64,000 nucleotides of DNA from Actinophytocola sp. (lineage in GTDB: Bacteria > Actinomycetota > Actinomycetes > Mycobacteriales > Pseudonocardiaceae): NCBI RefSeq assembly GCF_035634895.1, contig NZ_DASQCC010000100.1, forward strand, positions 333-64,332, in the 5' to 3' direction. This document shows positions 12,003 through 27,661 of this stretch, in pieces (within the stretch, counting starts at the first letter, position 1; the number at the start of each line of letters is the position of its first letter). The translations under genes were made by a program, and so were the position numbers. The notes beneath the pieces were generated by a model, which worked only from the letters and a program-made list of their open reading frames with translations, was not told where the DNA came from and did not search any database.

Positions 12003-13445
12003 TTACACGGCCGCGGGCACCAGCTCCTCCTCCTGTGCGACCTTCGGTTGGCGCAACACGGTGACCGCGAGTACGACCCCCAAGGCGACGAGCCCGGCGG
12101 CGATGCCGAACGCGAGGTGGAAACCGCTGGTCACCGCCTCGGTCCGGCCGATGCCCTCGGCGAGCAGCCCGTTGGTGTGAGCCGTTGCCACCGTGGCGAG
12201 GACGGCGAGCCCGAGCGCGCCACCGACCTGCTGGGTGGTGTTGACCAGGCCGGACGCGACGCCGGAGTCGTCCCTGGTGGCGTCGGACATGGCGAGGGTC
12301 ATCATCGCGGGGAAGCCGAGGCCGGCGCCGATGCCCAACAGCGTGACCGCGGGGAAGACGTCGGCGAGGTAGCCGGCGTCCACGGGCGCGCGGGTGAACA
12401 GGACAAGGCCGGCCGTGACGAGGACGAGCGCCGCCACCAGGACGTTCCGTTCCCCGAAGCGGGCGTTGACCCGCGCGGAGACACCGAGCGACAGCCCGCC
12501 GATGCCGACGGCGACGGGCAGGAACCCGAGGCCGATCTGGAGTGGGTCGTAGTGCAGGACCTTCTCCAGGTAGAGGGCGCCGAGGAAGAACATGCCGAAC
12601 ATGCCGGCGACCAGGAGGACCTGGATGAGGTTGGCGCCCGCGACGTTGCGGCTGCGGAGGATGCGCAGGGGCAGGAGCGGGTTCGCGCTGGTGGCCTGGC
12701 GGGTGACGAAGCCGGCGAGGAGTGCCACGGACGCCGCGCCGACGAGGAGCGTGTGGGCGGAGCCCCAGCCGTAGTCGGCGGCCTTGACGATCGTGTAGAC
12801 GCCGAGCATGAGACCGGTGGTGACGAGGAGGGCGCCGAGGACGTCCGCGCCTTCCTTCAGTCCGATGCCCTGCTCGCCGGGGACCCTCCGGACGGCCAGC
12901 AAGGTGGTGAGGACGCCGATCGGCACGTTGACGAAGAAGATCCAGTGCCAGCTGATGGCCTCGGTCAGCACGCCGCCCGCGAGGAGGCCGATCGAACCGC
13001 CGGCCGCCGCGACGAAGCTGAACACGCCGATCGCCCTGGCCTGCTCCCCCCTGCCGGGAAACATGGTGACGATCATGCCGAGAATGACGGCGGCGGCCAT
13101 CGCGCCACCGACCCCCTGGACGAACCGCGCGGCGATGAGCAGTCCCTGTGTGGTGGCGAGGCCGCAGAGCAGCGAGGCGGCGGTGAAGACCGCGATGCCG
13201 CCGAGAAACATGCGCTTGCGACCGACGAGGTCCCCGGTCCGGCCGGCGAGGAGAAGGAGACCGCCGAAGGGGATGAGGTATGCGTTGACCACCCAGGCAA
13301 GCCCCGACTGGGAGAAGCCGAGGTCAGCCTGGATGACGGGCAGCGCGACGTTGACGATGGTGCCGTCGAGAATGATCATCAACATCCCGGCGCACAACAC
13401 GACGAGCGCGAACCACCTGGAGTCGCGCCTTTCGTTCTGGGACAT
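12003..13445 (-). CDS. MFS transporter, DHA2 (EmrB/QacA-like, 14-TM) family
   Basis: 480 aa, many TM segments, an LPVIQADLGFS-type DHA2 N-terminal motif and an AGRTGDLVGRKR loop. Confidence 0.9.
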   Translation of the reverse strand: MSQNERRDSRWFALVVLCAGMLMIILDGTIVNVALPVIQADLGFSQSGLAWVVNAYLIPFGGLLLLAGRTGDLVGRKRMFLGGIAVFTAASLLCGLATTQGLLIAARFVQGVGGAMAAAVILGMIVTMFPGRGEQARAIGVFSFVAAAGGSIGLLAGGVLTEAISWHWIFFVNVPIGVLTTLLAVRRVPGEQGIGLKEGADVLGALLVTTGLMLGVYTIVKAADYGWGSAHTLLVGAASVALLAGFVTRQATSANPLLPLRILRSRNVAGANLIQVLLVAGMFGMFFLGALYLEKVLHYDPLQIGLGFLPVAVGIGGLSLGVSARVNARFGERNVLVAALVLVTAGLVLFTRAPVDAGYLADVFPAVTLLGIGAGLGFPAMMTLAMSDATRDDSGVASGLVNTTQQVGGALGLAVLATVATAHTNGLLAEGIGRTEAVTSGFHLAFGIAAGLVALGVVLAVTVLRQPKVAQEEELVPAAV

Positions 13446-13584
13446 GTGGAGCCGCCTCCTGAGCGTTCAAGTACAGGAGAGACCGTAGCAGATAGTCCCG
13501 AAGCGGACGATCCAGTGTGGGATTGCCTACATCGAGACGAATCTGAGGACACACGTCTCCCACGTCCGCAAGGGGGACCCCTGG

Positions 13585-13615
13585 TTCCACACTATCGGCA
13601 GGCACCGACAAAAAC
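13585..13615 (+). repeat. intergenic repeat module, copy 3 (TTCCACACTATCGGCAGGCACCGACAAAAAC)
   Basis: Aligns with 1219-1249 (about 23 of 29 positions). Preceded by GGGGGACCCC. Lies in the 370-nt MarR-MFS gap. Confidence 0.6.
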
Positions 13616-13816
13616 GGGGCCCGAGCTGCACGAACGGACCGTTCGCGCGGACGACATCGAAAAAGTCTCCATTCGCGCGGCGCCACGGACCGGTGCGCGG
13701 TTCGCCGCGCGTTGACCTGATGCGGCGGTACTCGCGGGCGGTCTCTTGCGGCGGCACCGGCATGAACCGCGACCCGTTGACCACGGCGGTGCGCAGGCGG
13801 GACGGCGCCGTGTGGG

Positions 13817-14263
13817 TCACATGCGACGGCGGGGTGGGCGTTGGCAGGCGACCGGTGTGGAAAGGCGGCCCTCCACCAGGCGGGTCAGGCCGGCCACGAA
13901 GCCCTCGCGTTCACCGTCCGGCAGCGCCGCCAGAACGTCCTCGTGCACGCGGGACACCACGTCCTTCGCCGAGGCGTGGACCTTCCGGCCCAGCTCCGTC
14001 ACCACGATGATCCGCGCGCGGCGGTCCGTCGCCGAGGTCTGGCGTTCCACCAGCCCGGCCTTCTCCAGCTCGTCGATGGTGACGACCATCGTCGTCTTGT
14101 CCAGTTCGCAGATCTCGGCCAGCTGGATCTGCGTCCGCTCGCCGGCCTGCGCCGCGGACAGCACGCAGCTGGCCCGCGGCGTGATCCCGAGGCCGGCCAG
14201 CTCCGCGGTCAGCTCGGTCGACAACACGTGACTGGCGTGGGAGAGCAGGAACGAGAGATCCAT
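13817..14263 (-). CDS. MarR family transcriptional regulator
   Basis: Winged-HTH core TQIQLAEICELDKTTMVVTIDELEKAGLVERQTSATDRRA. Lies upstream of, and co-oriented with, the MFS gene. Confidence 0.9.
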   Translation of the reverse strand: MDLSFLLSHASHVLSTELTAELAGLGITPRASCVLSAAQAGERTQIQLAEICELDKTTMVVTIDELEKAGLVERQTSATDRRARIIVVTELGRKVHASAKDVVSRVHEDVLAALPDGEREGFVAGLTRLVEGRLSTPVACQRPPRRRM

Positions 14264-14317: not shown

Positions 14318-15469
14318 TCAGTACCCGACGTACGAGCCGCCCGAGGCCGTGGCCTTGATGCCGGGCACGTTGCCCAGCGACCCGTACCTGGAGATCGCGT
14401 AGTTCACGCCGGCGCAGATGTTGTCCACCGGGTTCCAGATGTCGCCGTGGCCCGGCAGCTTGTACGAGTTGAACGTCGGGTCGATGCACTGCATCAACCC
14501 CTTCGACGGCGTGCCCTTCGCGGCGTTCGAGTCCCAGTTGTTGATCGCGTGTGGGTTGCCGCCCGACTCGTGCTGGATGATCTGCCAGATCCGCTGGGCG
14601 TCCGCCTCGCTGACGTTGATGCCCTGCTTGCGCAGCTCCTCGATGGCTTGCTTGATCCACTCCTGCACGTTCCCGGGAGGCGGGCCCCCCGCGGGCGGGC
14701 CACCGGACGAGCCCATGCCACCGCCACCGCCACTGAAACCGCCGCCACCGCCCCCACCGCCGCCGCCATGTGACGAGCCGCCGGAGTGGGCGGCGGTCTG
14801 CTGGACCGGCTCCTGGGTCTGGGTCGCGTTCGCGTTCGCCGGGGCCGTCTGCGCCTCCGGCGTCTCCTTCCACGTGACCGGCTGACCCGACTGCGGGCTG
14901 AACGGCTGCGTGTTCGGCTGTGGCAGCGTGGAGAACCTGGTGGCCGGTGACTTGCTCGCGTTGATCGTCCCGAGCGACGCGCTGAGTGTCTGCTCGGTGC
15001 TCTGGAGGTGGCTGTCGATGTCCCCGGCCGCGCTCTGGCACACCCGCGTGGTCATGGCGTCGAAGTCCGCCGTCGACGCCTTCGGGTTGTTGGTGGTCCA
15101 CGTCCGGATCTCGGTGAGCGCCTGGTCGCAGCGGGTCGAGATGTAGCTCTGCGCGCCGGTGATGGCGCCTGCGGCGTTCGTGAGCGCGGTCGCGGCGTTC
15201 GACATGGCCGTGCCGACGTCCGAGCCCGCGGTCTTGAACTTGTTCATGTACCCGACGAACTCGTCCGCGGACGTGCCCTCCCACGCCGCGTCGAGCTTGG
15301 TGACCGCGCCCGCCACCTCGCCGCTGTACGTCGAGACGTTCGTCGCGGCCATGGACAGCTTGCTCGCGGCCGTGGTGACCGCCGAGGCGTCCGCGTCCTT
15401 GATCTTCGCCACGGCCGTGGCGACGACACCGCCACCCGCGTAGCCCGCCAGCGTCTCCGCCGAACCCAC
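14318..15469 (-). CDS. WXG100-like N-terminal domain fused to a lytic transglycosylase (SLT) domain
   Basis: GTG 15469 with an AGGAGGGG RBS. The N-terminal ~180 aa are helical with LDAAWEGTSADEF (W-x-G). A Gln/Pro-rich segment is followed by HGGGGGGGGGGFSGGGGGMGSSGG. The C-terminus has IIQHESGGNPHAINNWDSNAAKGTPSKGLMQ (SLT catalytic Glu-Ser and GLMQ motifs). Confidence 0.8.
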   Translation of the reverse strand: MGSAETLAGYAGGGVVATAVAKIKDADASAVTTAASKLSMAATNVSTYSGEVAGAVTKLDAAWEGTSADEFVGYMNKFKTAGSDVGTAMSNAATALTNAAGAITGAQSYISTRCDQALTEIRTWTTNNPKASTADFDAMTTRVCQSAAGDIDSHLQSTEQTLSASLGTINASKSPATRFSTLPQPNTQPFSPQSGQPVTWKETPEAQTAPANANATQTQEPVQQTAAHSGGSSHGGGGGGGGGGFSGGGGGMGSSGGPPAGGPPPGNVQEWIKQAIEELRKQGINVSEADAQRIWQIIQHESGGNPHAINNWDSNAAKGTPSKGLMQCIDPTFNSYKLPGHGDIWNPVDNICAGVNYAISRYGSLGNVPGIKATASGGSYVGY

Positions 15470-15487: not shown

Positions 15488-15811
15488 CTACACGTAGTGG
15501 GGTTGCCCCTGCCCGTACCGGTGCTGCCCCTCGTCCTCGACGTTCTGGACGGTCCGCAGTACCGCGTCGAGCGCGCCAGCCACCCCGTTCAACCGGTTCT
15601 CGGCGGCGTCGAACTCGTCATGCATGACGTCGTTGAGCGAGTCGAGCGCGGAGGCCAGCCCCGCGGAACTCGGCAGCTTGCCGAACGTGCTCGCCGACGT
15701 CGTGGCCGTGCCCCCGTCGGGAAACGAGTCGGAGACCGAGCCGAACTTCGGCTTGTAGTCCTGTGCCTTCGAGATGAGGCCGTTGATGGCGTCGATGTTG
15801 TACTGCGTCAT
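15488..15811 (-). CDS. small helical protein, EspC/DUF2580-like ESX-associated candidate
   Basis: ATG 15811 with an AAGGGGTGGG RBS, 107 aa. The pattern TFGKLPSS..L..L......F..AE..L..V..AL..VLRTVQNVEDE resembles ESX-1 secretion-associated (EspC-like) proteins. Recognition is weak. Confidence 0.45.
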   Translation of the reverse strand: MTQYNIDAINGLISKAQDYKPKFGSVSDSFPDGGTATTSASTFGKLPSSAGLASALDSLNDVMHDEFDAAENRLNGVAGALDAVLRTVQNVEDEGQHRYGQGQPHYV

Positions 15812-15877: not shown

Positions 15878-16645
15878 TCAGACCTCGGCCATCAGCTCTT
15901 CGACACAGCTCGCGAGGCGGCGTCCGTCGGCCGGCGTGACGGTGCTCCACATGCGGCCGTCGTTGTTCGCCCTGGCGAGATGGACATACCGCCCGTTCGG
16001 CGTGTCGTGGAAGGCGACGACCCGGTCGGCGCGGAGCATCCGCTGGTCGCGCTGCATGCGGGTGACGCCGAACTGGCCGCGCACGTTCATGTCGCGCACC
16101 ATGTCGGCCATCGTCTTCGCGTCCTTGCCCGCGACACCCCGCCCGGTCAGCTCGGCCGCGAGCAACCGCACGTCACCACGAGCCTCGGCGTCCGCGGCGA
16201 CGAGCACGTCGGTCGGCACGCTGACCGACAGCCCCGGCCCGGCGACCACGTCCCCCGCGATCGACACGGCGGCGTCGGCGATGGCGGTCTCGCGTGCGGG
16301 AATGAGCCAGACCTCGGGCCCGTCGACGGCGGCGAGCAGCGCGGTATGGCCCGCGACGACCGCGAGCGAGGAGATGCGGTGGTCGGTCCACACCCAACTG
16401 TCGATGGAGAGTTGGTGGTGGGCAAGCAGGTTCAGCTGGTCGACGAGCTCGGGCACGGCCCGGTCGCGCTTGGCGAGCCCACGCGCCTCGAGATCGTCGA
16501 ACGCCTTGCGGACCAGCTGGCGACGTTCGGTGTGGGTGCGGCCCGGGCTCGGCACCGTGAGCGCCTCATGTTTTGCCGGGAGCCCTTCGGACTCCCAGAG
16601 CACGTCGAACTCGAGCTTGGAGAGGACGATGCTGCCCCTGCTCAT
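15878..16645 (-). CDS. EspG family ESX secretion-associated chaperone-like protein
   Basis: The N-terminus LSKLEFDVLWESEGLPAKHEALTVPSPGRTHTERRQL matches the characteristic start of actinobacterial EspG-family proteins. The start codon abuts the PPE-like gene stop (0-nt gap). Confidence 0.7.
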   Translation of the reverse strand: MSRGSIVLSKLEFDVLWESEGLPAKHEALTVPSPGRTHTERRQLVRKAFDDLEARGLAKRDRAVPELVDQLNLLAHHQLSIDSWVWTDHRISSLAVVAGHTALLAAVDGPEVWLIPARETAIADAAVSIAGDVVAGPGLSVSVPTDVLVAADAEARGDVRLLAAELTGRGVAGKDAKTMADMVRDMNVRGQFGVTRMQRDQRMLRADRVVAFHDTPNGRYVHLARANNDGRMWSTVTPADGRRLASCVEELMAEV

Positions 16646-17836
16646 CTACCCCTCATCGTCATCCCCGATGGACTCCGGCGCGACGACCCGCTCGTCGTCG
16701 AACACGTCGCTCGACTCGACACCGTAGCGGCGAACGTGCTCCAGGTCCTCCTCGCCCTCTTCCTTCCGGCCGGCGGCCGCCGGCTGCATGAGCGAGCTGC
16801 CGGGCCGGCCGCTCTTGGCACCGAACCGCTCGGCGTTGCGCGCGGCACGGGCCTCCTCTTCCGGCGCGGTACCAAGGGGAGTGCCGTTCTTGACCGGCCC
16901 GCGGTTGGCCGTGTTACGAGAGAGGCGTTCCTCCTCTGCGCCCGCGCCGGCACCCGTGGCGCCACCGGTCCCGATGGCGGTGGCGGCGTCGGCCATGAGC
17001 AGGGGGTTGGCCGCGGCGCGAAGCGCGGCCGGGAAAGGAGCGGCGGTGTTCGGGAAGGAGGGGGCGCTGGGGAGCGGGCCGCCGCCGGTGATGGGTCCGG
17101 TGCCGACGGGCGGATTGCCGCCGGGGGTGGGGATGGGGCTGGTGCCGCCACCACCCGGTGCTCCGGGAACGAAGCCGGTCGACCCGCCCGGCGCGCCACC
17201 GGCGGGGTTGAAGTTGCCACCCGGGTTGAAAGTGCCGACGGAGGACATGTGCGTGCTGGTGTCGACGGGCTGGGCGTTGAGGTTCATGCCGGGCGGGACG
17301 GGGAGCGCCTGGGACCTGCCGAGGGCGTCGGAACTGCTGGACTGGTAGCCGTTCATGGCGTCGACGGCCTGCTGCCGGGAGGCGTTCGTGTCCTTGACCT
17401 GTTGGGCGTGGTCGGTCGTGTGACCGAGGAAGCCCATGAACTGGTCGAAGCCGTTCTCGTCGGTGGGGCCGTTGAGCGAGCCCGCGTCCGGGGCATTGTT
17501 CTTGCCGGTGGAGAAAGCGGCGCCCTGGGAGTCGACACCCTTGGCGGAGTTGTCGACCGGGCCCTGGGACTGGTCGGCGTAGATGCTCGCGTCCTTGGTG
17601 GCAGACGTGCCACCGTCAGCCGCCTCACCCTGCCAGGTGACGCCGATGTCAGCGAGTTGCTGACGAAGCGCGGCATCCGTGTCGGAAAGGCCGTCGGAGA
17701 GCTTCATCAACGCCGTGACCGCGCTGTAGAGCGTGGAAGGGCCAGGTCCGTTACGCAGCCCGGTCACCTGCTCGGCGAGCGCGTGGTTGTCGTATCCGTC
17801 GAAACGCAGGTTACTGAGTCCGTGGTCCCCGGCCAT
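16646..17836 (-). CDS. PPE-like domain protein with Gly/Pro-rich C-terminal region
   Basis: AAGGAAG RBS. The N-terminal ~180 aa carry FDGY..L...V....GPGP, VTWQGEAAD (W-x-G) and AVDAMNGY, mirroring the PPE helical domain. The C-terminus is Gly/Pro/Ala low-complexity with an acidic tail. Confidence 0.65.
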   Translation of the reverse strand: MAGDHGLSNLRFDGYDNHALAEQVTGLRNGPGPSTLYSAVTALMKLSDGLSDTDAALRQQLADIGVTWQGEAADGGTSATKDASIYADQSQGPVDNSAKGVDSQGAAFSTGKNNAPDAGSLNGPTDENGFDQFMGFLGHTTDHAQQVKDTNASRQQAVDAMNGYQSSSSDALGRSQALPVPPGMNLNAQPVDTSTHMSSVGTFNPGGNFNPAGGAPGGSTGFVPGAPGGGGTSPIPTPGGNPPVGTGPITGGGPLPSAPSFPNTAAPFPAALRAAANPLLMADAATAIGTGGATGAGAGAEEERLSRNTANRGPVKNGTPLGTAPEEEARAARNAERFGAKSGRPGSSLMQPAAAGRKEEGEEDLEHVRRYGVESSDVFDDERVVAPESIGDDDEG

Positions 17837-17846
17837 AGCTACTTCC

Positions 17847-18467
17847 TTACCTCATGGTCTGCAGTGTCTGCAGCGCCATCTCGGCCGCTTCCTTGCCACC
17901 CTGGCAGATGGCATCCCCGGTGATGTCGTCGCTGATCGGTTCCATCTCGACATGCAGATGCTGGTTCTTCGCTACGCCGACCGCGATGGCGCATTCGTGC
18001 TTTCCGCCACCCAGGAGGTGGAACTGGGCCGCCGGATAGCCGCCGACAGAGATCAACTTGACGTCGGCGTTGTGTGGTTCATTGATCCACCACGCCACGT
18101 CGACGTTCGTGACAGCGATCACGCTGTAGCTGATGAATGGCTCCTCGGCATCCTTGTCGAGAGTGCAGTTCTTCATGTCCTTGTAGATCGTCCCGGCATC
18201 GCCGCCGTCATCGGGGGTGACCTCGTTGATCTGCAGATCCGATCGCTGGGCTGTCGTGAACAGCGTGCACGGGTCGATGCCGTCGAGTGAGAGGTCCCGA
18301 GGTGGAGGCGGGACGTCCACCGAGGAAGTGCTCGGATTGCCGGTCGAAGTCGAACCGCCACCGGCCGTGGAAGAGTCGGAGGTCGCGCTGCCAGCCTGGC
18401 TGACCGTGCATCCCGCCACAAGGGCCACAGCCGCGACCACGGGGAGCAGGATCGACTTCCTACGCAC
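17847..18467 (-). CDS. DUF3558-like lipoprotein
   Basis: Lipobox LVAGC after VRRKSILLPVVAAVA, a Ser/Thr-rich linker, then DPCTLFTTAQRSDL...C...GYPAAQF...C...C. Candidate starts are GTG 18467, TTG 18479 or the ORF maximum 18530. Confidence 0.6.
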   Translation of the reverse strand: MRRKSILLPVVAAVALVAGCTVSQAGSATSDSSTAGGGSTSTGNPSTSSVDVPPPPRDLSLDGIDPCTLFTTAQRSDLQINEVTPDDGGDAGTIYKDMKNCTLDKDAEEPFISYSVIAVTNVDVAWWINEPHNADVKLISVGGYPAAQFHLLGGGKHECAIAVGVAKNQHLHVEMEPISDDITGDAICQGGKEAAEMALQTLQTMR

Positions 18468-18858
18468 CCTTTTTCCCAAAAGCCGTGGCGATCTGGTCCT
18501 CGGTGTAGCCATAGGTCTTGGCTGCGTCACCCAACTGGACTGCCAGCTTCTTCAGGCCCAGGACGTATTCCCTGATCCGCGTGTCGTAGGAGTCGTCGTT
18601 GTCGACGAGGACCTCGTTCCATGCCTTCGCCATACGGATGCTCACGTCGTCAGTGCCCGGCGGCTGGATACGAAGGTCGTGTCTGCGTTCTTGCCACACC
18701 TTCTGGAGGGCGTCAGCCTGGGACTCGACGATGCGGCCGGCGGCCAGGACGTTGTCCCTTGTCACTGTGAAGGTGCCGGACGTGATGGCCGCAGTCGCCT
18801 TGTTGAGCTTGGTGAAGGCGGTATCGACGCCGCTGGCTATGTCGCCGGCGAGGTACAT
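18460..18858 (-). CDS. PE-like small helical secretion-substrate candidate
   Basis: ATG 18858 with a GGGGAG RBS (GTG 18873 is an alternative), 132 aa. PPGTDDVSIRMAKAW resembles the PE core ..ADEVSAAIAALF. The C-terminal helix ends in AAKTYGYTED (YxxxE). Confidence 0.45.
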   Translation of the reverse strand: MYLAGDIASGVDTAFTKLNKATAAITSGTFTVTRDNVLAAGRIVESQADALQKVWQERRHDLRIQPPGTDDVSIRMAKAWNEVLVDNDDSYDTRIREYVLGLKKLAVQLGDAAKTYGYTEDQIATAFGKKGA

Positions 18859-18981
18859 CTCGTCGCTCCCCACTCTTCGTGACGGGCCGGTCTCTTTCCG
18901 CAGGTTACCAATGCCGCGCAGGACTCACCTGAACTTTGACGAAGAAGTGGCACTACCGGTTCCGCTGATTGGCTGAACCCG

Positions 18982-26893: not shown

Positions 26894-27034
26894 GGCGCGA
26901 GCCCCGGCGCTCACAGTCCTGCCGGACCACTGCTGATCCCTTTGGACCACAACGAAAGTCGGCAATTCGCCGAGGTCATTGCCCTGCCGGCCAACGGTGT
27001 CGCATCGTCGATGCACTCTACTCAGGAGGGCACG

Positions 27035-27661
27035 ATGTCGGGGAAAGCTTTTGTCGGCGCGGTGTTGCTGGCCGCCGGGGCCGTGATCGGGCTCGGCGGT
27101 GCGGCTCAGGCGACTCCACCGGGTATCCCTTCGGCGGGTACCGCTCGGACCGAGCTGGCGGCGCTCACGGTAGCGCCGGACGGCTCCATGGACGGCTACG
27201 ACCGGGACCGGTTCCCGCACTGGCACAGCGTCGAAGGTGCTTGCAACACAAGGGAGATGGTGCTCCAGCGGGACGGCGACGGGGTCGAGACGGGCAGCGA
27301 CTGCGCGCCGACGTCCGGGAGCTGGACCAGTCCGTACGACGGGGACACCTGGACCCAGGCGTCCGATGTGGACATCGACCACATGGTCCCGCTCGCGGTC
27401 GCGTGGCGGTCCGGTGCGTCGAGCTGGACGACGGCCGAGCGTGAGGCGTTCGCCAACGACCTGAACTCGCCGCAGCTGTGGGCGGTCACGGACAACGTGA
27501 ACCAGGAGAAGAGCGACCAGACGCCGGACGAGTGGAAACCGCCACTGGAGTCGGAGTGGTGTGAGTACGCGCGGGCCTACACGCACGTGAAGTACCTCTA
27601 CGAGCTGACGGTCGACTCGACCGAGGAGGGCGCGCTAGCCGACATGCTCGCGACCTGCTGA
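27035..27661 (+). CDS. secreted DUF1524 / HNH (His-Me finger) nuclease family protein
   Basis: ATG 27035 after CAGGAGGG. Signal peptide AVIGLGGAAQA. DRDRFPHW, DIDHMVPLAVAWRSGA and NQEKSDQTPDEW match the DUF1524 motif pattern. Confidence 0.7.
   Translation: MSGKAFVGAVLLAAGAVIGLGGAAQATPPGIPSAGTARTELAALTVAPDGSMDGYDRDRFPHWHSVEGACNTREMVLQRDGDGVETGSDCAPTSGSWTSPYDGDTWTQASDVDIDHMVPLAVAWRSGASSWTTAEREAFANDLNSPQLWAVTDNVNQEKSDQTPDEWKPPLESEWCEYARAYTHVKYLYELTVDSTEEGALADMLATC

Follow-up and report, generated by a model that had tools for sequence, protein, structure and literature searches.

Architecture of the WXG100-SLT protein

The DNA considered here, a 64,000-nucleotide stretch from Actinophytocola sp. 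(contig NZ_DASQCC010000100.1, positions 333 to 64,332) referred to throughout as the window, harbours on its minus strand at 14318..15469 a gene for a protein of 383 aa, in which an N-terminal WXG100 domain and a C-terminal SLT (family-1 lytic transglycosylase) domain, both recognised by Pfam, are joined by a linker. This WXG100-SLT protein is probably a cell wall-cutting enzyme that leaves the cell through a type VII secretion system (T7SS). The reading frame opens with a GTG at 15469, with an AGGAGG ribosome-binding site 8 nt before it and an in-frame TAG 5 codons upstream; because of this stop, neither a longer N-terminus nor a hidden signal peptide is possible. When the whole 383 aa were scanned, no signal peptide (Sec/Tat), transmembrane segment, twin-arginine motif or lipobox was found, and Kyte-Doolittle hydropathy peaks at 0.98 (19-residue window). 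An initial annotation, made from the letters of the sequence, had stated that the protein lacks a Sec/Tat signal peptide, and this holds for a cryptic one as well. The DUF3558 protein encoded nearby, by contrast, has a clear lipoprotein signal. With its length of 383 aa, extra helix, linker and enzyme, the product is a fusion containing a WXG100 domain, and not the stand-alone protein of ~100 residues that defines the WXG100 family.

The N-terminal helical module comprises residues 1-172 (14954..15469, minus strand), somewhat shorter than the ~180 aa at which the initial annotation had put this correctly recognised helical region. Pfam WXG100 (PF06013) matches residues 26-104 with 34.4 bits and E=2.6e-8 (cut-off 27.3), and the score against NCBIfam TIGR03930 is 32 bits, under the cut-off of 44.85. 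Using the single sequence, phmmer matches M. tuberculosis ESAT-6 (3fav_B, 1wa8_B) at E=6e-4 with the W-x-G in register. A profile of 32 orthologues matches seven or more solved WXG100 proteins of the EsxA/EsxB type from five genera at positions of about 27-112, including Geobacillus EsxA (E=4e-5), two WXG100 proteins of Streptococcus agalactiae, an ESAT-6-like protein of M. abscessus, EsxB of Bacillus anthracis and M. tuberculosis ESAT-6. The motif in question, W63-E64-G65 (codons at 15275..15283, minus strand), lies within the sequence LDAAWEGTSADEF of the module; all 32 orthologues keep W63 and G65, and so do nearly all of 96 representatives of the wider family. In an AlphaFold2 model built on the 32 orthologue sequences (mean predicted local distance difference test score, pLDDT, of 71.8, with values of 83-98 across most of the N-domain), helices occupy residues 13-21, 28-62, 66-127 and 133-171, so that a WXG100 hairpin (28-62, 66-127) is followed by a third long helix, and W-E-G falls exactly at the 62/66 turn. 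The hairpin-like position proposed for this motif in the initial annotation is thus borne out by both the sequence matches and the model. Amongst solved structures, the better-fitting folds in Foldseek, none of them significant, included PPE41, PPE15 and PPE4, with a target template modelling score (TM-score) of at most 0.66 (PPE41 in the EspG5 complex). By sequence and model, the module is best described as a WXG100 hairpin extended to PPE-like size. The Pfam PPE model (PF00823) goes unmatched in the WXG100-SLT protein at E<=0.1, for which reason we do not speak of a PPE domain; 6 of the 96 family members give weak matches to that model.

Beyond the N-domain, residues 172-265 are disordered in the model, and are followed by a small helical C-terminal domain. 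Between the last helix of the module and the Gly-rich part of the linker sits a conserved linear motif, F-S-x-L-P-x-P-N-T-Q-P-F-x-P-x-x-G-x-x-V-x-W (residues 179-200; 14870..14935, minus strand), with F179, P185, P192 and W200 invariant. A clearly related version occurs in most relatives that carry NlpC/P60, CHAP or lysozyme payloads, the motif in these going with the N-domain whatever the payload; it is a candidate targeting signal, mycosin processing site or wall-binding element. The low-complexity linker proper (14672..14869, minus strand), delimited by composition, pLDDT and length variation, is Pro/Gln/Thr/Ala-rich at first, in agreement with the Gln/Pro-rich segment noted initially, and then becomes an uninterrupted Gly tract, HGGGGGGGGGGFSGGGGGMGSSGGPPAGGPPPG (residues 234-266). 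The tract is coded by GGN repeats, as had been seen, although it spans 14672-14770 and not 14690-14790. Composition across residues 173-265 is dominated by Gly (23), Pro (14) and Ser (10), the linker pLDDT is <50 and the length of the Gly/low-complexity stretch differs amongst orthologues.

The SLT domain occupies residues 267-383 (14321..14671, minus strand), with Pfam SLT (PF01464) matching residues 288-367 at 43.4 bits (cut-off 21.3) and the catalytic Glu301 encoded at 14567-14569. The QHESGG (299-304) and GLMQ (324-327) motifs read from the sequence at the outset are indeed present, and both are unchanged in the 32 orthologues; E301, S302, G-L-M-Q (324-327) and N350-I-x-A-G-V-x-Y357 are invariant across the 32 orthologues. 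In a weak alignment with E. coli MltE/EmtA (3t36/2y8p), E301 falls in the ESGGNP motif opposite Glu64, the catalytic acid of that enzyme, and the presence of the catalytic Glu, on which the enzymatic assignment turned, is thereby supported. The domain has relatives in phages: over about 115-122 residues, including the catalytic region, it shares 44-53% identity with a lytic-transglycosylase module that tape-measure proteins carry close to their C-terminus, with matches in 1069 phage records from hosts that include Bacillus, Lactococcus, Staphylococcus, Streptococcus, Gordonia, Rhodococcus and Streptomyces, and a structure search of a viral library with the model returned tape-measure proteins and a phage 'lytic transglycosylase' as its best matches. 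Judged by these identities, the domain belongs to the subfamily by which siphophage tape-measure proteins cut Gram-positive walls. The extreme C-terminus, G-G-x-Y-x-G-Y (window 14318-14341, minus strand), is likewise invariant in all 32 orthologues examined.

The upstream partner and the surrounding cassette

Immediately upstream, a gene at 15488..15811 (minus strand) encodes a helix-loop-helix protein of 107 aa, termed here the partner, whose family has no name; its stop codon lies 18 nt before the start of the WXG100-SLT gene. Synteny was counted over 66 loci with at least 6 kb of upstream sequence, one genome per species, and in 58 of these the partner occurs on the same strand about 300 bp upstream. 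Comparison of the partner family with Pfam returned no family even at E<=1. The UniRef label 'EspC' carried by partner orthologues is unsupported, as 0/32 homologues match PF10824 at E<=1, and the matches of the partner profile in the PDB (coronavirus spike heptad repeat 1, HR1) are coiled-coil noise. The partner shows no detectable homology to the PE-like gene of the cluster or, in profile comparison, to the WXG hairpin (probability 1%); partner and hairpin may share only helix-loop-helix geometry and an Ala-rich composition. A multiple aligner repeatedly laid the partner family over the WXG hairpin.

A distant version of the same arrangement occurs in Streptosporangium, where a gene with an NlpC/P60 payload is preceded at 5 nt by a gene for a 99-aa protein, with no EspG or PPE nearby. 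This 99-aa protein is homologous to the partner family (hhalign probability 92%, E=7e-7, 82 columns). Because the pair persists with a different payload and without EspG/PPE, the partner goes with the export module and is not a payload-specific inhibitor or immunity protein. Since Crossiella, Longimycelium, Streptosporangium and others retain just the partner and the WXG-SLT gene, the partner and the WXG-hydrolase form the core unit, with the EspG/PE/PPE/DUF3558 block as a frequent neighbour and not a requirement.

In the window this block is present in full, and the five genes upstream of the WXG100-SLT gene share its strand with gaps of about 0-66 nt. Next to the partner lies a T7SS chaperone gene of the EspG family (15878..16645, minus strand; PF14011, E=1.3e-62, full-length match), followed at 16646..17836 (minus strand) by a PPE-like T7SS substrate with WQG at residue 68, a Gly/Pro-rich middle and an acidic C-terminal tail. 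The latter scores 33.2 bits against Pfam PPE (cut-off 26) and matches PPE4 in the PDB (6uuj_B) at E=4e-4 over 149 residues. Its tail, which may be a secretion or anchoring signal, follows the pattern E-H-V-R-[RK]-Y-G-[VI]-E-x-x-D-V-F-x-D-x-R-[VM]-V-x-x-S-[IL]-G-[DE]-D (window 16646-16740, minus strand), common to orthologues from four genera; many of the distant WXG100_2-type proteins matched by the N-domain profile finish with a similar tail, 'EHKSKxR...FG...PPVIGE'. Beyond it are a DUF3558 lipoprotein (17847..18530, minus strand; PF12079, E=7e-24), with a hydrophobic segment and the lipobox VAGC at residues 38-41, and a PE-like small helical protein of 137 aa (18460..18873, minus strand), whose matches to PE and EspC are weak and below cut-off. 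With its annotated start at 18530, the DUF3558 gene would run 71 nt into the PE-like gene, and the true start therefore probably lies downstream. The PE-like protein has a C-terminal YxxxE motif (Y121-G-Y-T-E125), the only one in the cassette, within a K-x-Y-G-[YF]-x-E context that is invariant in four genera. In Saccharothrix violaceirubra the cassette contains four DUF3558 copies and a second, shorter EspG gene, whilst DUF3558 is single-copy in the window.

The partner and this EspG/PPE/PE/DUF3558 cluster, overlooked in the initial annotation, provide the strongest contextual support for a T7SS connection. PE and PPE proteins have been stated to be unique to mycobacteria (PMC12209268), and espG, pe and ppe have been modelled as plasmid-acquired within the Mycolata (PMC4791881). 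A PE-like/DUF3558/PPE/EspG cluster (window 15878-18873, minus strand) in a non-mycolate Pseudonocardiaceae genome, with a fixed position beside purD in some 55 of 66 species genomes, does not fit either that statement or that model.

Distribution, locus conservation and payload range

Homologues of the WXG100-SLT protein number more than 1200; the top 120 all carry both domains and all come from Pseudonocardiaceae, the closest (88-98% identity) being from Actinophytocola. A scan with one genome per species located relatives of the N-domain in 196 genomes, and the best 80 of these belong to a dozen genera of Pseudonocardiaceae and to Streptosporangiales. The WXG100-SLT gene occurs in single copy and has a fixed place in a housekeeping locus, beside purD. 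Starting from purD, Actinophytocola algeriensis, Saccharothrix violaceirubra and Kibdelosporangium philippinense all have the PE-like, DUF3558, PPE-like, EspG, small and WXG-SLT genes in this sequence. Amongst the 66 loci introduced above, purD stands beside the N-domain gene in 58, EspG in 57, the PPE-like gene in 56, the PE-like gene in 55 and DUF3558 in 54. Downstream genes vary by genus in the three genera compared, being MarR plus a major facilitator superfamily (MFS) transporter, an aminotransferase, or alpha/beta hydrolases. An SLT domain is fused downstream of the N-domain at every one of the 66 loci, and it is the better conserved part of the protein, with a mean pairwise identity of 0.81 for the SLT domain vs 0.46 for the N-domain.

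Outside this group of orthologues the payload does change. An exhaustive profile search with residues 1-204 gave 345 representative clusters, and a Pfam census of the 96 members with at least 280 aa found WXG100 in 85, SLT in 54, NlpC/P60 in 7, Phage_lysozyme2 in 5, and CHAP and Amidase_5 in 3 each. The cell wall is thus the target of almost every recognisable enzymatic payload on this N-domain, and nuclease, deaminase and ADP-ribosyltransferase payloads were not found by Pfam in any of the 96; the Pfam LXG model is touched by a single member. The check suggested in the initial annotation, whether related genomes hold the same N-domain with other C-terminal payloads, is therefore positive, with NlpC/P60, CHAP and lysozyme-like enzymes. 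Its analogy with LXG/WXG polymorphic effectors is apt insofar as a secretion domain precedes an enzyme, but does not extend to the polymorphism itself, as the payload is fixed within the orthologue group and better conserved there than the N-domain, the reverse of what a polymorphic toxin would show, and varies only between distant lineages and only amongst peptidoglycan hydrolases.

Proposed function and alternative explanations

The reading that best accommodates these observations, to which we would assign a probability of about 60%, is that the WXG100-SLT protein is a lytic transglycosylase exported through a T7SS of the ESX type rather than by Sec/Tat, and directed at the producer's own wall. 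The assignment of a T7SS-type domain joined to a lytic transglycosylase, as first proposed, is supported by the evidence above. From it we infer export by the T7SS, pairing with the partner, enzymatic activity and a self-directed function. In such a scheme, the 172 N-terminal residues would act as an ESAT-6/PPE-like module that probably pairs with the ~100-aa upstream partner into a folded helical bundle of the kind by which T7SS substrates, secreted as helical dimers, engage the machinery; the ESX ATPase would recognise the bundle of partner and N-module, and the complex would be exported. The Pro-rich motif and the disordered Gly/Pro linker would tether the compact SLT domain, in which, once outside the membrane, Glu301 would cleave the bond between N-acetylmuramic acid (MurNAc) and N-acetylglucosamine (GlcNAc) to leave 1,6-anhydro-MurNAc ends. 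The most likely substrate would be the producer's own sacculus, through local wall opening or remodelling. Such an enzyme could act in hyphal growth or septal remodelling, or could open the wall so that the co-encoded PE/PPE pair, handled by EspG, passes through it; both roles are plausible.

Comparative evidence is what makes the wall of the producer itself the most likely target: the payload never changes within the orthologue group (66/66), it is more conserved than the domain that would deliver it, the gene keeps a single housekeeping locus across genera, and no downstream gene is conserved alongside it. It is against these same points that an antibacterial role must be measured. In this alternative the WXG module would deliver the lytic transglycosylase to competitors, with immunity encoded elsewhere, for example by the DUF3558 lipoprotein. 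The interchangeable payloads carried by the N-domain across lineages (SLT, NlpC/P60, CHAP, lysozyme-like and amidase) do resemble effector modularity, wall hydrolases are common antibacterial effectors of other secretion systems, and the cassette does contain, in DUF3558, an extracytoplasmic lipoprotein that is multiplied in Saccharothrix. An effector would, however, have to be reconciled with an invariant payload conserved beyond its delivery domain, with a single-copy gene at a fixed purD-adjacent locus, and with a downstream position taken, according to genus, by MarR, an aminotransferase or an alpha/beta hydrolase. The partner, which tracks the N-domain across payload types, does not behave as a payload-specific immunity protein. 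DUF3558 is itself disfavoured in that capacity, being absent from Crossiella, Longimycelium and Streptosporangium, where the pair persists. An effector is for these reasons considered unlikely, and of the two outcomes that the initial annotation had offered, self remodelling and interbacterial antagonism, the former is favoured. Its remark that no obvious immunity gene follows, MarR coming next, is accurate, with the addition that MarR takes this position in Actinophytocola only.

In a second alternative, residues 1-172 would be a regulatory or oligomerisation coiled coil and the wall would be reached by some other means, for instance by non-classical release or with the help of a holin-like system. 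The models for this are PcsB, CwlO and RipC, FtsEX-controlled proteins that combine a long helical N-domain with a wall hydrolase (CHAP, NlpC/P60 and the like). Consistent with such a role, some relatives match Pfam Hydro_N_hd just below the cut-off, Foldseek cannot tell the N-domain from generic long-helix folds, and a YxxxD/E motif is missing. Yet PcsB, CwlO and RipC carry Sec signal peptides, of which the WXG100-SLT protein has none; the N-domain is specifically WXG100 by Pfam, by its matches to solved Esx proteins and by its invariant WxG; and the annotated genes around it, both here and in three related genera, include no ftsEX, its neighbours instead being EspG, PPE and PE. This explanation seems somewhat less likely still than that of an effector. 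That the gene is left over from a tape-measure gene of a prophage tail and has no cellular role, as the 44-53% identity of its SLT domain to tape-measure modules and the label 'Phage...' on the database record of one orthologue might suggest, is highly improbable given that its flanks are free of phage genes and hold purD, an aminotransferase, EspG and PPE instead, that it is intact and strongly conserved, dozens of genera having it at one and the same locus, and that its N-terminal part is WXG100 and not tape-measure-like.

A number of results nonetheless weigh against T7SS-dependent export of a self-directed enzyme. The canonical YxxxD/E signal is absent, by motif scan, from both the WXG100-SLT protein and the 107-aa partner. 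The AlphaFold2 model gave no match in the PDB at E<=1e-3 with Foldseek, in which PPE chains score about as well against the N-domain as generic BAR-type helical folds. A single-chain model of partner plus N-domain reached a predicted TM-score (pTM) of 0.66, with one good model out of five and moderate confidence in the long helix of the partner, and a fold search with it was uninformative (EspB at rank 27, target TM-score 0.31). With regard to the enzyme, the Pfam SLT match spans model positions 11-85 of 117 only, and is thus to a short version of the domain, in which residues 309-329 are modelled with low confidence. No Ecc/MycP core T7SS genes are present in the 64-kb window. ESX-4-type core clusters have been reported in Pseudonocardiales (PMC4791881), and we rely on this literature for the order in taking a T7SS to be present in this genome. 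The choice between self and non-self targeting is argued from comparative genomics alone, and no experimental study of fusions between WXG100 and transglycosylase, C40 or NlpC domains was found in the literature.

If export of the WXG100-SLT protein as a self-directed enzyme is accepted, a broader proposition may be entertained, albeit one that we regard as doubtful at present. In non-mycolate actinomycetes the T7SS could serve as a dedicated route for the cell's own wall hydrolases (SLT, NlpC/P60, CHAP and lysozyme-like), each marked by a WXG/PPE-like tag and a ~100-aa partner, with a non-canonical signal in place of YxxxD/E. Such a signal may reside in the K-P-K-F-G-x-x-S-D-x-F-P loop of the partner and/or in the F-S-x-L-P...W motif that follows the helical module.

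Relation to known systems

The domains of the WXG100-SLT protein are individually ordinary, and the architecture has already been labelled by annotators: the NlpC/P60 versions of Nonomuraea and Streptosporangium bear the NCBI name 'bifunctional WXG100 family type VII secretion target/C40 family peptidase'. In these C40 fusions the N-domain is homologous to that of the window protein (E 1e-43 to 1e-20), the Pro-rich motif is similar, and a gene homologous to the partner lies 5 nt upstream; they carry an NlpC/P60 endopeptidase instead of SLT and have no EspG/PE/PPE nearby. A fusion of WXG100 to a wall hydrolase is not amongst those listed by Zhang et al. 2012. Where the present case departs from characterised ones is in its peptidoglycan-hydrolase payload, its non-mycolate T7SSa host, its housekeeping-like conservation, its unnamed partner family and its lack of YxxxD/E.

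Amongst established T7SS substrates, WXG100/ESAT-6 proteins such as EsxA and EsxB likewise form a helix-turn-helix with WxG at the turn, match the N-domain significantly in sequence and have a small helical partner gene adjacent. They are about 100 aa in length, whereas the window protein has 383 aa, with an enzyme at its C-terminus and one more long helix, the third, and, unlike in EsxA/EsxB pairs, its partner is not detectably WXG100 and YxxxD/E is lacking. LXG toxins with Lap/DUF3130-type partners (T7SSb, Bacillota) similarly consist of a helical T7SS N-domain of ~200 aa and a C-terminal enzyme, with one or more small helical partners encoded upstream. The window system differs from these in belonging to an actinomycete (T7SSa), and in having a fixed payload, no immunity gene and only wall hydrolases as enzymes. 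A third parallel is with PE/PPE substrates and EspG, in that the neighbours include EspG and a true PPE homologue, the N-domain is PPE-like in size and topology, and the hydrolase is joined to a secretion domain, as it is in LipY, a PE-lipase fusion of ESX-5; in contrast to these, the pair of partner and WXG-SLT also occurs in lineages without EspG/PE/PPE, and its host is a non-mycolate monoderm.

The enzymatic half has parallels of its own. EssH of Staphylococcus aureus is a non-lytic, CHAP-domain peptidoglycan hydrolase dedicated to the T7SSb (PMC13059805). Like the window protein, for which the link would be by analogy, it is a wall hydrolase with a functional link to type VII secretion and a candidate answer to the crossing of a thick wall. 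It differs in that the window protein, an SLT lytic transglycosylase, has the T7SS-type domain on the enzyme itself. EssH is exported with a Sec signal peptide. The article on EssH also cites EtgA (type III secretion system, T3SS) and VirB1 (type IV secretion system, T4SS) as specialised lytic transglycosylases (PMC13059805), and these resemble the window enzyme in being small SLT enzymes that open the wall for a secretion apparatus, a role that the latter may share. They are, however, Sec-exported periplasmic enzymes of diderms encoded within the locus of the apparatus, whilst the window gene lies away from core T7SS genes. Tape-measure modules, finally, belong to the same SLT subfamily and also place the enzyme behind a long alpha-helical protein for whose export or ejection there is a dedicated apparatus, as would be the case here; in contrast to them, the window gene is cellular, sits at a housekeeping locus, has a WXG100 N-domain and comprises no part of a virion.

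The role of type VII secretion in non-mycobacterial actinomycetes is largely unclear, and the passage of T7SS substrates through thick peptidoglycan is an open question according to a 2026 review (PMC13492133). With relatives in at least 196 species genomes, the WXG100-hydrolase family offers a genetically tractable candidate for a T7SS-tagged wall-cutting enzyme. If its export is real, peptidoglycan hydrolases would join the list of T7SSa cargo, a new family of partners and perhaps also a new targeting signal would be defined, and ESX systems would be tied to cell-wall growth or development. Should the less certain notion of a dedicated wall-hydrolase route hold, it would give ESX a housekeeping role, supply a wall-opening factor for the T7SSa and help to explain the developmental phenotype reported for a Streptomyces T7SS mutant (Fyans 2013, as cited in PMC13492133). 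If export is not confirmed, the gene would be a correctly annotated two-domain protein.

Other features of the window

The region of the WXG100-SLT gene has the same GC content as the rest of the window, about 70%, and a promoter/terminator scan of the operon detected none, as expected for a genome of 70% GC. The remaining genes of the window are housekeeping in nature, including purA, purB, purD, aminotransferases and ClpB/DnaJ-like open reading frames. Directly downstream of the WXG100-SLT gene is the MarR gene (13817-14263), which together with the MFS transporter gene (window 12003-14263 for the two, minus strand) lies between the SLT gene and an aminotransferase in Actinophytocola only, and is unrelated to the system described here. 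Further away, an open reading frame at window 26942-27661 (plus strand) encodes a restriction-endonuclease-type C-terminal domain, GmrSD_C (E=3e-6), and may be a defence gene.

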